64,000 nt of DNA from Escherichia coli (GTDB lineage Bacteria > Pseudomonadota > Gammaproteobacteria > Enterobacterales > Enterobacteriaceae): the NCBI RefSeq assembly GCF_003790525.1, contig NZ_CP033635.1. One strand, given 5' to 3'. Under the pieces are notes generated by a model. The model had not been told where the DNA came from. It saw nothing but the letters and a program-made list of their open reading frames with translations, and made no database searches. Below, in pieces: positions 6,031 to 13,813 of the stretch; position 1 is the first letter of the stretch, and each line of letters starts with the position of its first letter. The position numbers were made by a program, and so were the translations under genes.

Positions 6031-7539
6031 ATGTCCCTGAATCCCACCGATGAACAGTCAGCCATCATTCACTGGCAGGGGGAAAAACTGGTGGTGAATG
6101 CCTTTGCCGGTACAGGCAAAACCAGCACACTGGTGCAGTTCGCCGCAGCCTGCCCTGAGAGCCGGATGCTGTATCTGGCCTATAACCGCGCGATTCGTGA
6201 TGAGGCGGAGCGCCGGTTTCCCTTTAATGTGGAGTGCAAAACCTCCCATCAGCTGGCGTATTCGCGGTTCGGAAAGCATTTCCGGCATCGTCTGGTGCCG
6301 GGGCTGTCAGTGACGGATGTAGCGAGAAAACTGAACACCCGCTACTGGACGCTTGCCCGTGTTGCCATGACCGCGCTGAATCAGTTCATCTGTTCGGCGG
6401 ACGTGGCGCCCGGAATGCAGCATATGCCGCCTCCCGACGAGATGAAGGGCATGTCGCCACAGGATGCGCTGCGTGCCGTGCAGATCCTCTGGCATGAAAT
6501 GAGCAATCCGGATGGCAATTTTCCGGTCACTCACGACACCTATCTGAAGCTCTATCAGCTTTCCTCACCGGATCTGTCACGCAGGTGGGATACGATCCTT
6601 TTTGATGAGGCCCAGGATGCGAATCCGGTGACGTCCGCACTGGTGCTGGGGCAGCGGTGCAGGGTGGTACTGGTTGGCGACCGTTACCAGCAGATTTATC
6701 GTTTTCGTGGTGCCAGCGATGCACTGTCGCATCCGGCACTGAACGGGGCGGACCGTCTCTGGCTGACGCAAAGTTTTCGTTTTGGTCCTGCCGTGGCCGG
6801 GGTGGCCAGCCAGTTACTGAAGCGTGCCGGCGAGAGCCGTGAGGTGACCGGCAGGGGCGGGGATGATGAAGTGCTGACGGCAGGTGAAATGCGTGCGCGC
6901 GTGAAGGCAGGGAAGATGACCGGTCACAGGGCGATACTGAGCCGGACGGTGGCCGGTGTGATTGGCACGGCACTGATGGCGGCAATGCGTGGCAGGAAGG
7001 TTTACTGGGTGGGGGGCATTGAAGGCTACAGAACGGAAGCACTGGAAGATCTTTACTGGTTTCAGATGGACATGCCGGAGCGGATGCACAGTGACAGACT
7101 GCGAAAGGACTACCGGAGTTTTGACGAGTACCGTCATATTGCGAAGGTGACGAAGGATGTGGAAATGAATCAGTCCATTCGTCTGCTGGAGCTGTGCTTT
7201 CCGCTGCCGAAGAAACTCGAACTTCTCAGAAAGCACACCGTCACGAATGAACAGGAGGCGGATATCACGGTCTCAACGGCACACCGCAGTAAGGGACTGG
7301 AGTGGGCACTGGTGATACTCGATGATGATTTTCAGGATATCACCGACCCGCTGATAAGCGAGCAGGAGCGGCGTGATGAAACCAATCTGCTCTATGTGGC
7401 GGTCACCCGGGCGCGCAGAACGCTGGTTCTCAATGAGCTCATGCAGCAACTGACGGAAGCTGCCGGCGATGGTGGTGCACCCGGAAACGCGCCGGTGCAG
7501 GGGAAGGAAGACGATGGCGTGGAGGGAGAGGATGTTTAA
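6031..7539 (+). CDS. SF1 (UvrD/Rep-like) DNA helicase
   Basis: 502-aa ORF; Walker A AFAGTGKTS; ILFDEAQD Walker B-like; C-terminal VSTAHRSKGLEW and LLYVAVTRAR motifs typical of UvrD_C; GGAGGAA RBS before the ATG. Confidence 0.75.
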   Translation: MSLNPTDEQSAIIHWQGEKLVVNAFAGTGKTSTLVQFAAACPESRMLYLAYNRAIRDEAERRFPFNVECKTSHQLAYSRFGKHFRHRLVPGLSVTDVARKLNTRYWTLARVAMTALNQFICSADVAPGMQHMPPPDEMKGMSPQDALRAVQILWHEMSNPDGNFPVTHDTYLKLYQLSSPDLSRRWDTILFDEAQDANPVTSALVLGQRCRVVLVGDRYQQIYRFRGASDALSHPALNGADRLWLTQSFRFGPAVAGVASQLLKRAGESREVTGRGGDDEVLTAGEMRARVKAGKMTGHRAILSRTVAGVIGTALMAAMRGRKVYWVGGIEGYRTEALEDLYWFQMDMPERMHSDRLRKDYRSFDEYRHIAKVTKDVEMNQSIRLLELCFPLPKKLELLRKHTVTNEQEADITVSTAHRSKGLEWALVILDDDFQDITDPLISEQERRDETNLLYVAVTRARRTLVLNELMQQLTEAAGDGGAPGNAPVQGKEDDGVEGEDV

Positions 7540-9157
7540 GCGGTTCAGACGTATGCTGCCCGGCACAAAGGTCACGGAGCCAGGCGTGGTCGCGCCGGTG
7601 ATACCGGCAGGGTTTTATGCGCCGCTCACAGCAGAAGCACTGTTATCACCAGAGCACAGGGAACTGAGGCTCAGGCAGGTATGGGATAACAATCCGATGC
7701 CCCGTGATGTATACGACAGGATGTGCCTTGCGCCACTCAGCCGGCTGTTGCTGAACACCCAGAATGTGCCGGCAACACGGGAAGGACGGTGGTCCCGTGC
7801 CGGTGGATTTGGTGATCTGACGGTACTGTACACCACGTATGCCGTTCGTCTGGCAAGAGGGTACATGTTTCCACCGGATGCGACCCCGGAAGACCAGGCG
7901 GCTCAGGCCGCAGTCTGGCATACGGTGATTTTCTGGTCAGCGCTGTTTTACCACCTGCCCCTGCTGGCGCACCTTGAGGGGGAGCTGCTGAGTGGTCGGG
8001 GCTGGCAGCCAGGGATTTCTGTGCCTGACGAACCTTTCCGTTTCCGGTTCAGGAAGACGGCGCCGCAGGGCACGGAAGCGCAACAACTGGCGGCCCTGAC
8101 TGCCGGCACGCTGTTACCGGACGGCGCAACGGCCTGGCTTGTGACGGCGCCGGGGGCGCTGCAGAATCTGGCCGGGGCGCTCTGGCATCAGCATCCCGGG
8201 ATGGCGCTGATTCGTGATGTGCTGCAGGAAGCGGCAAGGCAGACAGAGAGTCCGCTGAATACCTGCGCTGTCACTGCGCCGGTTACTGCGGAGGCTTCAG
8301 CAGACATCCGTCCTGCTGACCCGGTGGTGACCGGCAGCACGGACAGTGTGATGGCAGTCACTGAGGTGCAGCCGGCAGAGGAGGTGAAGACTGAGAGCGT
8401 GCAGACAGAGACTGAAGGTGGTGGTGAGTCCGCCGGAGCGTCAGAGGTGCCGTCCGCACAGCAGGAACTGACGGTTCAGACAGCGCCAGTGGTGACGGCA
8501 GATGATGAAGCGGTCAGTGCTTCTCCTGCGGATCAGGACACAGCAATGCTGCTGAGTCTTTTTTCAGCAGATGAGTCCGAAACTGCTGAACGGGATAATG
8601 GGGATGTGGTGATGCTGGCTGATGAGGAAGAAGCGCAGGATCTCACCGATGGACCGGATGAAGGCGATTCGTCTCCGGGCAGTATTCATGAATCGCCGTA
8701 TCTGGTGGAGAGTGACGCGTCGGTTAATCAGTCCGTATCCGGGGAATACCGCGCAACAGAAGTGAATCCGCTTACCGGAGATGATCCTGATTTAAAGGGA
8801 GAGACGTTTTTGGACTGGCTTAAAGCAGGGCTGAACAGTGGTGAGATATCATTTAACCAGAAAGGCGACAAAATACACATTGTTGCAGGACTGGTTTTCC
8901 TGCCGGTACCAGGCATTTTCTTTGATTACCTGAAAGCAGTGCAGCTTCCCGGGGACAAACGCCCGATTGTTCAGTCATCATTTGAGCGGCTCTGTATCAA
9001 TAAACGCCGTGATGACCAGCGTTTTTATTTTGCTCGTATTGCTGAGGAACCCGGGAACTGTGCACGTTACAAAACAGTCAAAGGTTACCTGGTCAAAGGA
9101 CGTAGTCTGATGCATGAAAGTAAACTGAAAGACAGTCCTTATCTTTTTATTTCGTGA
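7514..9157 (+). CDS. Putative conjugative relaxase (TraI_2 / MOBH-like) with acidic low-complexity linker
   Basis: ORF 7469..9157; start chosen at ATG 7514 (AAGGAAG RBS), overlapping helicase stop; C-terminal segment (IHIVAGLVFLPVPGIFFDYLK...) resembles TraI_2_C; family assignment is from memory. Confidence 0.5.
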   Translation: MAWRERMFKRFRRMLPGTKVTEPGVVAPVIPAGFYAPLTAEALLSPEHRELRLRQVWDNNPMPRDVYDRMCLAPLSRLLLNTQNVPATREGRWSRAGGFGDLTVLYTTYAVRLARGYMFPPDATPEDQAAQAAVWHTVIFWSALFYHLPLLAHLEGELLSGRGWQPGISVPDEPFRFRFRKTAPQGTEAQQLAALTAGTLLPDGATAWLVTAPGALQNLAGALWHQHPGMALIRDVLQEAARQTESPLNTCAVTAPVTAEASADIRPADPVVTGSTDSVMAVTEVQPAEEVKTESVQTETEGGGESAGASEVPSAQQELTVQTAPVVTADDEAVSASPADQDTAMLLSLFSADESETAERDNGDVVMLADEEEAQDLTDGPDEGDSSPGSIHESPYLVESDASVNQSVSGEYRATEVNPLTGDDPDLKGETFLDWLKAGLNSGEISFNQKGDKIHIVAGLVFLPVPGIFFDYLKAVQLPGDKRPIVQSSFERLCINKRRDDQRFYFARIAEEPGNCARYKTVKGYLVKGRSLMHESKLKDSPYLFIS

Positions 9158-9210
9158 GTGGAGGGGAGGCTATTATTGCAGGAATGTGAATGAAATGTAA
9201 AAGGTAATCA

Positions 9211-10200
9211 ATGAAAATAAATAATGCGGATAAGTGCTGGAATGATTTGATGGATGAGTTTTTTTTCTGCCGTTCAGTACGTGAAGCTACGGAGTGGAGC
9301 TACAGAAAGGTGCTGAACGGATTCCGTAAGTTTGTTGGCGGGACTCTGTTACCGGAAGATATCCGACAACAACATGTCAGGGAGTGGCGACGGGAGGTCC
9401 TGAAAAACCAGAAACGTTCAACTCATACATGGAACAACAAGGTACGCCATATGCGCGCTATCTTCAGTTTTGCTTCCTCATCTGAACTCCTGCATTTAAG
9501 TTGTAACCCGTTTGAGGGTATGAGCGTCAGACAGGAAAAGAAACGCAAAAAAACACTGACCCGGAAACAAATAAAACGCATCCTGCTGGTCCTTGAGCAG
9601 TTTCAGGAGGATGAAATGAACCTGAAGATGCACTGGAAGTGCGCCATTCGTCCGGCCTGGTACTGGATTATTGTGGTTAACACACTTCGCTTTACGGGGA
9701 TGAGGCTGAATCAGCTGCTGCATCTGCGCCTGCGGGATGTTAATCCTGAAGAACGGTGGATTGATTTATGCTCTGAAGGCAGCAAGACACATCATGAGTG
9801 GCGGATCCCGATGGTCAGTCATCTGGTTCCGGGGATAACCAGGCTGATGGATGAAGCGGTGAAACGTGGAGCCACGCCTGATGATTATCTTTTCCACTAT
9901 CATCGCTATGCTTTGCCTGTGTCTGAAGCATTATCGGTGAGCGGACCTCCGGAAGAGCAGAAGGTCAAAGGTTTTTTCCGGCGTCTGTCGAAAGAGTGTG
10001 GTTTTCAGGTATCTGCACATCGTTTCAGACACACTCTGGCAAGTACTCTGATGGCGGCACCGGAACGAAATCTGTACATGGTGAAAACCATGCTGGGTCA
10101 CCGGAATGTTTCAACGACACTGGAATATGTGGAGATGGATCTGAAGGGAACAGCACGTATACTTGAGGCCGAACTGTCAAAACTGACAGACGATCTTTAA
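9211..10200 (+). CDS. int: Tyrosine recombinase / integrase (329 aa)
   Basis: RBS AAGGTAA; catalytic-looking residues in LRFTGMR, HRFRHT, GHRNVSTT and LEYVE (R, H-x-x-R, H, Y); adjacent to tRNA-Phe 3' end. Confidence 0.85.
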   Translation: MKINNADKCWNDLMDEFFFCRSVREATEWSYRKVLNGFRKFVGGTLLPEDIRQQHVREWRREVLKNQKRSTHTWNNKVRHMRAIFSFASSSELLHLSCNPFEGMSVRQEKKRKKTLTRKQIKRILLVLEQFQEDEMNLKMHWKCAIRPAWYWIIVVNTLRFTGMRLNQLLHLRLRDVNPEERWIDLCSEGSKTHHEWRIPMVSHLVPGITRLMDEAVKRGATPDDYLFHYHRYALPVSEALSVSGPPEEQKVKGFFRRLSKECGFQVSAHRFRHTLASTLMAAPERNLYMVKTMLGHRNVSTTLEYVEMDLKGTARILEAELSKLTDDL

Positions 10201-10396
10201 TCAGGTGATTGCTTACAGTTGTTGACAACATGAAAAACCGTTGCAATCATAATGAATGATCGAGAAAGGGAGCATGCGACCAACATGCTCCCCAATCGAG
10301 AAAATGAGATGGCATGACCTAGACTCACGACATCTTGCACCTTCCCGATGACACCCGTCAGGGTTCTCACTCCTGACCAGTGGCTTTGATGTAAGG

Positions 10397-10472
10397 TGGT
10401 GCCCGGAGGCGGAATCGAACCACCGACACGGGGATTTTCAATCCCCTGCTCTACCGACTGAGCTATCCGGGC
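10397..10472 (-). tRNA. pheV: tRNA-Phe (GAA), pheV locus, variant T-stem
   Basis: Reverse complement reads GCCCGGATAGCTCAGTCGGTAGAGCAGGGGATTGAAAATCCCCGTGTCGGTGGTTCGATTCCGCCTCCGGGCACCA; matches E. coli tRNA-Phe except four compensatory T-stem changes. Confidence 0.9.
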
Positions 10473-10577
10473 AACGGGGCGCATTAAACCTGATTCGCCT
10501 CGTCTCGTCAATCAAATTTCTTCAATTTACTGCAGACTGCACAATCTATCATCACTTTGCCGCTATTGCACGCATTG

Positions 10578-11306
10578 TCAGGCAAACCAGGCGGTCCAGG
10601 CGGCGGAAAGCGGCATTGCCAGAAGGAGTGCTGGAAGCATGTTGACCACCGGGAACATTTTAATGCCACAGATGCGTAATCCGGTTGCCAGCAGCAATAA
10701 ACCGCCTACGGCGCTGAAGTCTGCCATCATCGACGGTGTGGTCAGCGGTAATATCAGCGCGGCAGCCCACGCCAGTGTTAACTGGATGATCAGTAATGGA
10801 ATGCTAATCACCGACACCGCAATACCCAGCGAGCAGGCGAAGATCATCGCCGTAAAGAAATCGAGAAATGACTTGGCGATTAAAATACTCGGATCGCCGG
10901 TCATCCCTTCGTTCATCGCCCCGAAGATCCCGGTGCCGCTGGCGCAAAACAGGACAATAATCGCGACATAATTCTGAATAAAAGATTCATGCGCTGGCTT
11001 CTTAGGTGAGTGGCGAAACAGATTTTGTGCTTTGGTGACCGCGGTATTGACCCCTTTTTCCAGCAGACACATTTCGCCGATTAATGCACCGAGTAAGGTT
11101 GCTAAAACCATCGCCGGAAGGTTGGCGCATTTCACCACCAGTAAAATACCAATCCCCAGCGATGCCAGACCAAAAATTGATGTCATGGAGACGCGGATAC
11201 GTTCCGGTAAGCGTTGACTAAGGAGTGCACCGAGAACGCCACCCAGTAATACTGCACTTGCGTTGATAAAAGGACCGATGACCACAAGAGTTCCTGTTAG
11301 CTGCAT
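10578..11306 (-). CDS. yqgA: DUF554 inner membrane protein YqgA
   Basis: 242-aa polytopic membrane ORF next to pheV as in K-12. Confidence 0.85.
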   Translation of the reverse strand: MQLTGTLVVIGPFINASAVLLGGVLGALLSQRLPERIRVSMTSIFGLASLGIGILLVVKCANLPAMVLATLLGALIGEMCLLEKGVNTAVTKAQNLFRHSPKKPAHESFIQNYVAIIVLFCASGTGIFGAMNEGMTGDPSILIAKSFLDFFTAMIFACSLGIAVSVISIPLLIIQLTLAWAAALILPLTTPSMMADFSAVGGLLLLATGLRICGIKMFPVVNMLPALLLAMPLSAAWTAWFA

Positions 11307-11677
11307 TGTCTGATTTTCTTATTATGACCGTTTGGCTCCTTCGATGGCTTGTTTGTTCGCAAAGTCCTGGCTTGCACGCTCTGGTGAAAGGTGCCATGAT
11401 TGCGCGAATTTTCTCCTCTCTGTACGGAGTTTGCCCGATGCACGCCACCTCCTTACATTCTCTCGCTTATCGCCGTTTCGCGCGAAACTCCTCCCTTTTT
11501 CTGCTCATGCGGTGAGGTTAACGCACGCTCACTGCAGGACAACAGTAAAATCAGAGCGTTTCTGCTTTTACTGATGTCTGGCGGTCGGAGCTGGTGACCA
11601 GTTTGACCCATATCTCGTGGGGCAGGGTTTTTCACCTTGTCCGGTATTCTTACTTCCCCGAAACGGGTTTTGCGCTT

Positions 11678-13813
11678 ATGAAATCAATGAATATTGCCGC
11701 CAGTAGTGAACTGGTATCCCGACTTTCTACTCATCGCCGCGTGGTGGCGTTGGGAGATACTGATTTTACGGACGTCGCGGCAGTCGTCATTACCGCTGCG
11801 GATAGTCGCAGTGGCATTCTTGCGTTGCTTAAGCGCACCGGTTTTCATCTACCGGTGTTTTTGTATTCCGAACATGCTGTTGAATTACCTGCGGGCGTTA
11901 CGGCGGTAATTAACGGCAACGAGCAGCAGTGGCTGGAGCTGGAATCCGCAGCCTGTCAGTATGAAGAGAATTTGCTGCCACCGTTTTATGACACGCTGAC
12001 GCAGTACGTTGAGATGGGTAATAGCACCTTTGCTTGCCCTGGGCATCAACATGGTGCGTTCTTTAAAAAGCATCCTGCCGGACGCCATTTTTACGATTTC
12101 TTTGGTGAGAACGTCTTTCGCGCCGATATGTGTAACGCTGACGTAAAATTGGGCGATCTGCTTATTCATGAAGGATCGGCGAAAGATGCGCAGAAATTCG
12201 CAGCCAAAGTCTTTCATGCCGATAAAACCTATTTTGTGCTGAACGGCACATCGGCAGCGAATAAAGTGGTGACGAATGCGCTGTTAACGCGTGGCGATCT
12301 GGTGCTCTTCGACCGTAACAACCATAAGTCGAATCATCACGGCGCGCTGATTCAGGCGGGGGCGACGCCGGTCTATCTGGAAGCTTCACGTAACCCGTTT
12401 GGTTTCATTGGCGGTATTGATGCGCACTGTTTTAATGAAGAGTATCTGCGCCAGCAAATTCGCGACGTTGCGCCAGAAAAAGCCGACCTGCCGCGCCCGT
12501 TTCGCCTGGCGATTATTCAGCTGGGAACCTATGACGGCACTGTCTATAACGCCCGTCAGGTGATCGATACCGTTGGGCATCTGTGTGATTACATTCTGTT
12601 TGATTCCGCATGGGTCGGTTACGAACAGTTTATCCCGATGATGGCGGATAGCTCGCCGCTGCTGTTAGAACTTAACGAAAACGATCCGGGGATCTTTGTG
12701 ACCCAGTCGGTGCACAAACAGCAGGCGGGATTCTCACAGACGTCGCAGATCCATAAAAAAGATAACCATATCCGTGGACAGGCGCGTTTTTGCCCGCATA
12801 AGCGGTTGAATAATGCCTTTATGCTCCATGCTTCTACCAGCCCGTTCTATCCGCTGTTCGCCGCGCTGGACGTTAACGCCAAAATTCATGAAGGGGAGAG
12901 TGGGCGTCGGCTGTGGGCGGAGTGCGTTGCGTTGGGGATTGAAGCCCGGAAGGCGATTCTTGCGCGCTGTAAGCTGTTCCGCCCGTTTATCCCGCCCGTT
13001 GTTGATGGCAAATTGTGGCAGGATTATCCGACGTCAGTGTTAGCCAGCGACCGCCGTTTTTTCAGTTTTGAGCCGGGGGCGAAGTGGCACGGCTTTGAAG
13101 GATATGCCGCGGATCAGTATTTTGTTGATCCGTGCAAGCTGTTACTCACCACGCCGGGTATCGATGCCGAAACCGGCGAATATAGCGATTTTGGCGTTCC
13201 GGCGACGATTCTGGCGCACTATCTGCGTGAGAACGGCATTGTGCCGGAGAAGTGCGATCTCAATTCCATTCTGTTCTTATTAACTCCGGCGGAAAGCCAC
13301 GAGAAGCTGGCACAACTGGTGGCGATGCTGGCGCAGTTTGAACAGCATATTGAGGATGACTCGCCGCTGGTTGAGGTGTTGCCGAGCGTTTATAACAAAT
13401 ATCCGGTGCGTTATCGCGACTACACCCTGCGCCAGTTGTGTCAGGAGATGCACGATCTGTATGTCAGTTTCGACGTCAAAGACCTACAAAAAGCGATGTT
13501 CCGCCAGCAGAGTTTCCCGTCAGTGGTGATGAATCCCCAGGATGCGCATAGCGCTTATATTCGCGGTGAAGTGGAGTTGGTGCGGATTCGTGATGCCGAA
13601 GGGCGAATTGCGGCAGAAGGGGCGTTACCTTATCCACCTGGCGTGCTTTGCGTGGTACCCGGGGAAGTCTGGGGTGGGGCGGTTCAACGTTATTTCCTTG
13701 CACTGGAAGAAGGGGTGAATTTGTTGCCGGGATTTTCGCCGGAGCTGCAAGGTGTCTATAGCGAAACCGATGCGGATGGCATGAAACGGTTGTACGGTTA
13801 TGTGTTGAAGTAA
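11678..13813 (+). CDS. speC: Ornithine decarboxylase, constitutive
   Basis: 711 aa from MKSMNIAASSELV...; ORF-track start at 11594 is an upstream extension. Confidence 0.95.
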   Translation: MKSMNIAASSELVSRLSTHRRVVALGDTDFTDVAAVVITAADSRSGILALLKRTGFHLPVFLYSEHAVELPAGVTAVINGNEQQWLELESAACQYEENLLPPFYDTLTQYVEMGNSTFACPGHQHGAFFKKHPAGRHFYDFFGENVFRADMCNADVKLGDLLIHEGSAKDAQKFAAKVFHADKTYFVLNGTSAANKVVTNALLTRGDLVLFDRNNHKSNHHGALIQAGATPVYLEASRNPFGFIGGIDAHCFNEEYLRQQIRDVAPEKADLPRPFRLAIIQLGTYDGTVYNARQVIDTVGHLCDYILFDSAWVGYEQFIPMMADSSPLLLELNENDPGIFVTQSVHKQQAGFSQTSQIHKKDNHIRGQARFCPHKRLNNAFMLHASTSPFYPLFAALDVNAKIHEGESGRRLWAECVALGIEARKAILARCKLFRPFIPPVVDGKLWQDYPTSVLASDRRFFSFEPGAKWHGFEGYAADQYFVDPCKLLLTTPGIDAETGEYSDFGVPATILAHYLRENGIVPEKCDLNSILFLLTPAESHEKLAQLVAMLAQFEQHIEDDSPLVEVLPSVYNKYPVRYRDYTLRQLCQEMHDLYVSFDVKDLQKAMFRQQSFPSVVMNPQDAHSAYIRGEVELVRIRDAEGRIAAEGALPYPPGVLCVVPGEVWGGAVQRYFLALEEGVNLLPGFSPELQGVYSETDADGMKRLYGYVLK

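Follow-up and report, generated by a model that had tools for sequence, protein, structure and literature searches.

We report a predicted extended -10 sigma-70 promoter at the integrase-proximal end of an ICE of Escherichia coli, facing outward through the attachment site. Judged by its sequence and by its conservation in related elements, the site is likely to be a functional promoter. That it also drives parA and the following genes once the element is circular, as the full model has it, we consider probable, with less assurance than the promoter itself. The site lies in a stretch of 64,000 nucleotides (contig NZ_CP033635.1), which was analysed as a whole and is referred to below as the window; positions given without a locus label are those of the window, and the features discussed are collected in Table 1.

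Table 1. Features at the integrase end of the element, in order of position in the window.
Feature	Position	Strand	Evidence and remarks
XerC/D-like tyrosine integrase, 329 aa	9211-10200	+	Pfam PF00589; same annotation in E. coli AR_0089
TTACA box, 4-5 nt 5' of the -35 hexamer	10213-10217	+	moderate conservation, e.g. T at -9 in 25 of 32 non-redundant loci
Predicted -35 hexamer TTGACA	10222-10227	+	invariant in relatives
TG of the predicted extended -10 (TGn)	10242-10243	+	T in 27 and G in 31 of 32 non-redundant relatives
Predicted -10 hexamer AATCAT	10245-10250	+	family pattern (A/G)A..AT
Predicted transcription start	10255-10259	+	standard promoter geometry, 5-9 nt past the -10 hexamer
GC-rich hairpin, arms GGGAGCATG (10268-10276) and CATGCTCCC (10284-10292)	10260-10292	-	folding, covariation
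Second conserved stem-loop, GTCAGG ... CCTGAC	10357-10377		covaries with GTTAAG/CTTAAC; 20-40 nt from the tRNA 3' end
Element-borne tRNA-Phe 3' half	10397-10426	-	T-stem variant differs from native E. coli pheV
tRNA-Phe (pheV), chimeric but intact	10397-10472	-	ARAGORN; Rfam tRNA, 69.1 bits; convergent with the predicted outward promoter
Crossover core CACGGGGATTTTCAATCCCC, tRNA-Phe anticodon stem-loop	10427-10446		exact match between window 10427 and L003 15109

The window contains the integrase end of an ICE of the pKLC102/PAGI-2/PAPI-1/SPI-7 family inserted in pheV. By Pfam, type IVb pilus genes on the left flank are accompanied by genes for a UvrD-like helicase (6031-7539), a TraI_2/MobH relaxase (7469-9157) and the integrase. 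The integrase is homologous to those of pKLC102 and ICEHin1056 and closes the module formed by these three, with which the ICE ends on its right side. Beyond it follows the pheV locus of E. coli, where yqgA (DUF554) and speC are found as at the identical annotated locus in E. coli AR_0089; in that genome the element extends about 78 kb leftward with ICE-type conjugation genes and SPI-7-type parA, dnaB-PI and parB. We describe the element as ICEEc2-like, a likeness drawn from published descriptions of ICEEc2, which is a described E. coli member of the family at tRNA-Phe (PMC6761156, PMC11537424). At least 15 complete E. coli genomes match the stretch 10150-10480 at 100% identity, and in 34 the match covers at least 80% of it. 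In AR_0089 the left junction (L003 13619-16100) places the ICE in tandem with an older island that bears a P4-type integrase, pap fimbrial genes and tia, the ICE apparently having inserted between pheV and this pre-existing island; PGAP labels the leftover tRNA piece there 'tRNA-Ser'. The AR_0089 ICE also has iha, for a siderophore receptor/adhesin, among its conjugation genes (L002 27520-29607, outside the window), and its further cargo includes an ardA antirestriction gene and a gene for an L31 type B ribosomal protein.

The tRNA-Phe gene of the window is a composite in which the element-borne 3' half is joined within the crossover core to the native 5' half. The variant T-stem of the element half still pairs (GGTGG/CCGCC type), and it recurs in the attP copies L039, L052 and L082, from relatives in Xenorhabdus and Citrobacter. 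In AR_0089 the native pheV 3' half and the native pheV terminator are found at the far junction (L003 15045-15108), and the order there is native 3' half, 20-bp core, element DNA and parA. Since the crossover lies in the anticodon stem-loop, the element ends inside the tRNA gene. The "island terminus" named in an earlier note on this DNA is accordingly to be placed at 10427-10446, and not at 10396, next to the 3' end of the tRNA gene. The second stem-loop listed in Table 1, which has longer stems in some relatives, may be part of attP, of the parA leader or of the tRNA trailer. Rfam searches of the whole window at gathering thresholds, and of 10150-10480 at permissive E-values, found only the tRNA, and the conserved hairpins match no family.

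Reading of the sequence and a promoter scan both place TTGACA and AATCAT on the plus strand with a 17-nt spacer, exactly where the earlier note had put them, and its statement that the site lies downstream of the integrase stop and reads toward the attachment site holds as well. The integrase ORF stops at 10200, 21 nt 5' of TTGACA, and the site occupies the gap between this stop and the minus-strand tRNA-Phe gene; the distance from the -10 hexamer is 147 nt to the tRNA 3' end and 177 nt to the crossover core. Ten of the 12 hexamer positions agree with the sigma-70 consensus, including all six of the -35, and the -10 hexamer is preceded by TGc, whose TG the earlier note had passed over. The site thereby combines the features of the extended -10 class, namely a -35 element, a spacing of 17 +/- 1 nt, A at -11, T at -7 and TG at -15/-14; at position -12 it has A and not the consensus T. 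A -10 register shifted by one nucleotide (TAAAAA-type, with T at -12) was rejected: neither the invariant T-7 nor the TGn spacing survives the shift, and relatives with TGG, TGA or TGC do not fit it. The TTACA box upstream of the -35 has counterparts in relatives, either TTTACA or a second perfect TTGACA, 10-11 bp 5' of the -35, and in form it may represent an upstream element or an operator of the direct-repeat kind. The predicted start overlaps a GATC (Dam) site (10258-10261); GATCGAGAAAAGG is kept at this place in most Enterobacterales relatives and AACGAGAAAAGG in Xenorhabdus and Pectobacterium. Such a GATC might make the promoter sensitive to the methylation of DNA that has just been transferred. 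Short ORFs (21 and 31 aa) lie 3' of the predicted promoter, in a stretch where conservation is structural or motif-like and not codon-like.

The bare motif alone is within chance for the window. A tool scan found three promoter-like sites in 8000-13000 against 3.9 expected, and under a Markov model the whole window, both strands counted, has six sites of at least 10/12 against about 7.8 expected. In the 196-nt spacer on this strand the same type of model expects 0.012-0.018 sites, or 0.001-0.002 if TG is required. The site stands out because of its position and its conservation in relatives. The only other window site that scores 10/12 and bears a TG (minus strand, 9201-9172) served as a control and is without conservation in relatives. 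This site, TTTACA-18-AATAAT, lies at 9172-9201 in the 54-bp gap between relaxase and integrase, antisense to traI, and is probably a chance match.

A homology search with the integrase of the window gave 318 homologues. Twenty-five integrases were aligned, and the alignment was used to retrieve 80 loci from one-genome-per-species contigs of Xenorhabdus, Serratia, Pectobacterium, Erwinia, Pantoea, Klebsiella, Proteus, Yersinia, Citrobacter and other genera. The integrases of these loci are 42-55% identical to that of the window, and most of the loci share the layout of integrase, 200-400 bp and minus-strand tRNA-Phe. Of 79 related loci, 65 have the pattern TTGACA-N14-15-TGnnAnnnT at their integrase end. 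The 1.0 Mb of sequence from these loci holds 66 occurrences, every one of them at this site and on the plus strand; the window has exactly one, at 10222. In 32 non-redundant sequences (mutual identity at most 85%) information content peaks only at the -35, at the TG, at A-11 (32/32), at A-8 (28/32) and at T-7 (28/32), and the spacer of 17-18 nt carries about 0 bits; position -12 is A or G, not T, in nearly all relatives. The -35 still lines up when the downstream CGAGAAAA motif is used as the anchor, so its invariance is not an artefact of anchoring. TTGACA is kept whether it lies in frame in the integrase tail (as Leu-Thr), across the stop codon (T-TGA-CA) or 14-150 nt past the stop, and coding constraint is therefore ruled out. 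Such a pattern is the footprint expected of an extended -10 sigma-70 promoter, the A or G at -12 being its one oddity; on these alignments the site would belong to that class.

The gene that the predicted promoter would serve lies at the other end of the element. In AR_0089 the parA ATG is 93 nt from the crossover core and reads inward, and a consensus scan, which is blind to non-canonical promoters, found no promoter-like site within about 600 nt 5' of it in the integrated state. When the circle was closed in silico the -10 hexamer came to lie 289 nt from the parA ATG, and a consensus scan from the integrase stop to this ATG gave no other site of at least 9/12. Equivalent junctions, circular or tandem, occur naturally: integrase and ParA are contiguous, co-oriented and 300-520 bp apart in seven genomic loci and in two circular records, Salmonella pSGI4 and a Citrobacter plasmid, with attP between the two genes in every junction. 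The order is integrase, promoter site, attP and parA, and the site is 200-350 nt 5' of parA/soj. In eight of the nine junctions (both circular ones and six of the seven genomic ones) the conserved site has the top score within the gap, and five of these eight hold no other site of at least 9/12; no plus-strand terminator was called in the gap of the two natural junctions scanned for one. Excision has been reported for SGI-4 and ICEEc2 (PMC6543542, PMC6761156). The layout is that of circularisation-dependent expression, with a predicted promoter facing out, a far-end gene facing in that has no promoter-like site of its own, and a circle found in relatives. The earlier note had proposed, as a weak call, an outward sigma-70 promoter for genes at the far end after circularisation, and conservation, gene order and natural junctions now lend this proposal support in silico.

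The parA ATG is directly preceded by an inverted repeat that varies among lineages (L003 15170-15222; also in L034, L061, L072, L045, L084 and L085), and the parA start often is without a clear Shine-Dalgarno sequence. The repeat could be an RNA hairpin that controls translation, or an operator. A local or leaderless parA promoter within the repeat was looked for and found no support, as the candidate hexamers there are without A-11 or T-7 or are wrongly spaced. The repeat could still belong to a local promoter or operator of parA of an unrecognised kind, and this counts against the main model.

About 10 nt past the predicted start begins a GC-rich hairpin that is found at this position in every relative, with differing sequence. 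The folding energy is -22.6 kcal/mol (z -4.95) for the minus strand and -20 kcal/mol (z -3.8) for the plus strand, and the stem has 9-11 pairs. Compensatory changes were seen in 10 of 10 pairs, 95% of the cells are paired, and none of 500 shuffles was as good. On the minus strand the hairpin is followed by TTTCTCGA in the window (complement of 10260-10267) and by a nearly invariant TTTTCTCG in relatives; counted as a U-tract, the window has only UUUCUCGA, four U in eight, and most relatives have UUUUCUCG. A strict terminator scan called the hairpin of L034 and did not call that of the window. The plus-strand tail is variable, with 1-6 T in eight among relatives and one T in eight in the window copy. 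On the minus strand the hairpin resembles an intrinsic terminator, which may stop transcripts running on from the reassembled tRNA-Phe gene. With the native pheV terminator moved to the far junction, the simplest reading is that the element carries a terminator for the tRNA gene it rebuilds. In the predicted outward transcript the plus-strand form of the hairpin would be a stem-loop close to the 5' end. A similar hairpin, also with a minus-strand T-tract, is found 5' of the promoter in pKLC102, which suggests that hairpin and promoter are separate modules.

Taken together, these features can be read as follows. While the element is integrated, transcription from the putative promoter would leave it across the attachment site and run antisense into tRNA-Phe, with no element gene to serve. 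Excision would join the ends of the element and bring the promoter to about 290 nt 5' of parA/soj, the first gene of a tightly packed run on the same strand (parA, dnaB-PI, parB and others) that we read as an operon, and partition and replication functions would thus be made only while the element is extrachromosomal. The hairpin would act as a module of its own, ending minus-strand transcription from the tRNA-Phe gene and so shielding int from antisense transcription. Several features weigh against this model. Beside the inverted repeat before parA, the absence of T at -12 and the chance-level frequency of the bare motif, the predicted leader is long, at about 290 nt, and contains antisense tRNA sequence, and several relatives carry 4-6 plus-strand T after the hairpin, T-tracts that could terminate or attenuate the outward transcript before parA. 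A literature search found no transcript, start-site or reporter data for the element or its enterobacterial relatives. The promoter is likewise described in none of the literature found on enterobacterial members, including papers on SGI-4, ICEKp2 and the Serratia island; the primary papers on PAPI-1 soj and on ICEEc2 were outside this search.

Other explanations of the site have to be weighed against this model. The notion of a chance match without function deserves hardly any credence: the count of 10/12 sites in the window is indeed within expectation, but the strict pattern recurs 66 times at the corresponding place in diverged relatives and never elsewhere in 1 Mb, which makes chance very unlikely, and the unconserved control at 9201 is what a chance match looks like. 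Nor does it seem probable that the motif adds little and that parA is transcribed after circularisation mainly by read-through from the helicase-traI-int operon. The window hairpin after int is without a plus-strand U-tract, no plus-strand terminator was called from int to the tRNA, and int transcripts could cross attP; yet such read-through leaves the strict conservation of a promoter-shaped motif, even inside the int coding sequence, unexplained, and the plus-strand T-tracts of relatives would block transcripts from int just as well.

Somewhat more weight, though still little, can be given to the view that the block TTGACA ... TGnAAnnAT is a protein-binding site and not a promoter, either an operator or an accessory site in attP that binds the integrase or a directionality factor. 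It lies inside attP less than 200 nt from the crossover, the second TTACA/TTGACA box 10-11 bp 5' resembles a direct-repeat operator, and the conserved inverted repeat at 10357-10377 is close by. Against this, the conserved positions are those that sigma-70 reads, spaced 17-18 nt apart with an unconserved spacer, a pattern that the arm site of a recombinase is not expected to mimic; the 329-aa integrase gave no match to an N-terminal arm-binding domain (Pfam), and binding of a regulator would in any case be compatible with promoter function. Unlikely too, but the rival that we would take most seriously, is a real promoter whose main role is another one: antisense action on, or interference with, tRNA-Phe or yqgA while the element is integrated, a short RNA ending at the hairpin, or transcription of attP that aids recombination or replication. 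The site is convergent with tRNA-Phe at only about 150 nt, transcripts could stop at about +45 in the several relatives with a plus-strand T-tract, and the G-U and A-C patterns of the stem (wobble cells, five for the plus strand and nine for the minus strand) suggest that both hairpin strands may be used as RNA. The window copy and its closest relatives, however, are without the plus-strand T-tract, no plus-strand terminator was called between promoter and parA in the natural junctions scanned, and the conserved structures match no Rfam family. Moreover, the order of promoter, attP and parA is kept as far as Pseudomonas, even though the position of the hairpin differs there, and the mechanism reported for PAPI-1 fits a role in parA expression.

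Within the preferred model, expression of parA after circularisation, the arrangement of promoter and hairpin invites a further idea, which we put forward tentatively and think rather doubtful. Together the two could act as an excision sensor, in which strong convergent tRNA-Phe transcription ending at the hairpin, about 10 nt from the start, occludes the promoter, and excision both frees it and brings parA, dnaB and parB under its control. The tRNA promoter would stay behind in the chromosome on excision, and the conserved GATC could add a dependence on the methylation of newly transferred DNA. No description of such two-step, excision-sensing control was found for this ICE family.

If the main model is true, it would explain why plasmid-like replication and partition genes are silent in integrated islands and become active after excision, in elements that are widespread in enterobacteria. 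The family takes in ICEEc2-like, SGI-4, SPI-7-like and YAPI/HAI2-like elements. Genes for virulence and for resistance to metals and antibiotics are carried on these islands, and the model would bear on their stability and spread. The signature TTGACA-N14-15-TGnnAnnnT, followed by CGAGAAAA and the hairpin, marks the integrase end of such elements and can be used for their annotation.

The closest known system is that of PAPI-1 and pKLC102 of Pseudomonas aeruginosa, members of the same ICE family in which soj/parA leads the gene order at the end opposite to a XerC-like integrase. According to later papers that cite Qiu et al. 2006 (PMC2654960, PMC2704930, PMC4489591), PAPI-1 soj is expressed more strongly in the circular form, because it is there joined to a promoter from the opposite end, and maintenance of PAPI-1 depends on soj. 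A promoter at the integrase end that is joined to soj on circularisation is what we predict here, a likeness that rests on these secondary descriptions. In pKLC102 we found an outward TTGACA-17-TAATGT about 212 nt 5' of soj across the junction, which may correspond to the mapped PAPI-1 promoter. The two systems differ in target (tRNA-Lys in pKLC102, tRNA-Phe here), in the integrase, with 33% identity between the two, in the -10 element, which is without TG in pKLC102, and in the hairpin with its minus-strand T-tract, which is 5' of the promoter there and 3' here. ICEHin1056 was rejected as support, as it has only weak 9/12 sites in a duplicated block before attP. Its junction (L088 3100-3459 and L089 1-145) contains a tandem block of about 139 bp, each copy with a weak TTTACA-17-TAAGAT facing parA, and an extra minus-strand gene lies between integrase and attP.

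The junction promoters of insertion sequences (IS911 pjunc, IS30 and IS2) likewise make expression conditional on circle formation, and are assembled from the -35 of one end and the -10 of the other. In the present element, by contrast, one end would hold the complete promoter and the other would supply only the target gene. ICEclc, which belongs to the broad ICEclc/ICEHin1056/pKLC102 group, shares the principle of an outward promoter: its Pcirc is constitutive, points out of the integrated element and gains an element gene as its target only once the ends have recombined (Sentchilo et al. 2003, as summarised in PMC5812530). Pcirc differs in lying opposite the integrase and driving intB13, whereas the promoter predicted here adjoins the integrase and would drive parA. 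In Tn916 the transfer genes are expressed only after circularisation, by transcripts crossing the attachment site (Celli and Trieu-Cuot 1998, as described in PMC5812530), and a terminator near one end of the element insulates it from outside transcription (PMC11658703), a role that the minus-strand terminator-like hairpin would share here. Tn916 is nevertheless an unrelated Gram-positive element that serves other genes and uses an antitermination system, of which the present element shows no sign. Since PAPI-1, ICEclc and Tn916 already work on this principle, the model extends known biology and does not overturn it; its useful details are the family-wide signature, the face-to-face layout of predicted promoter and terminator, and the testable idea of an excision sensor.
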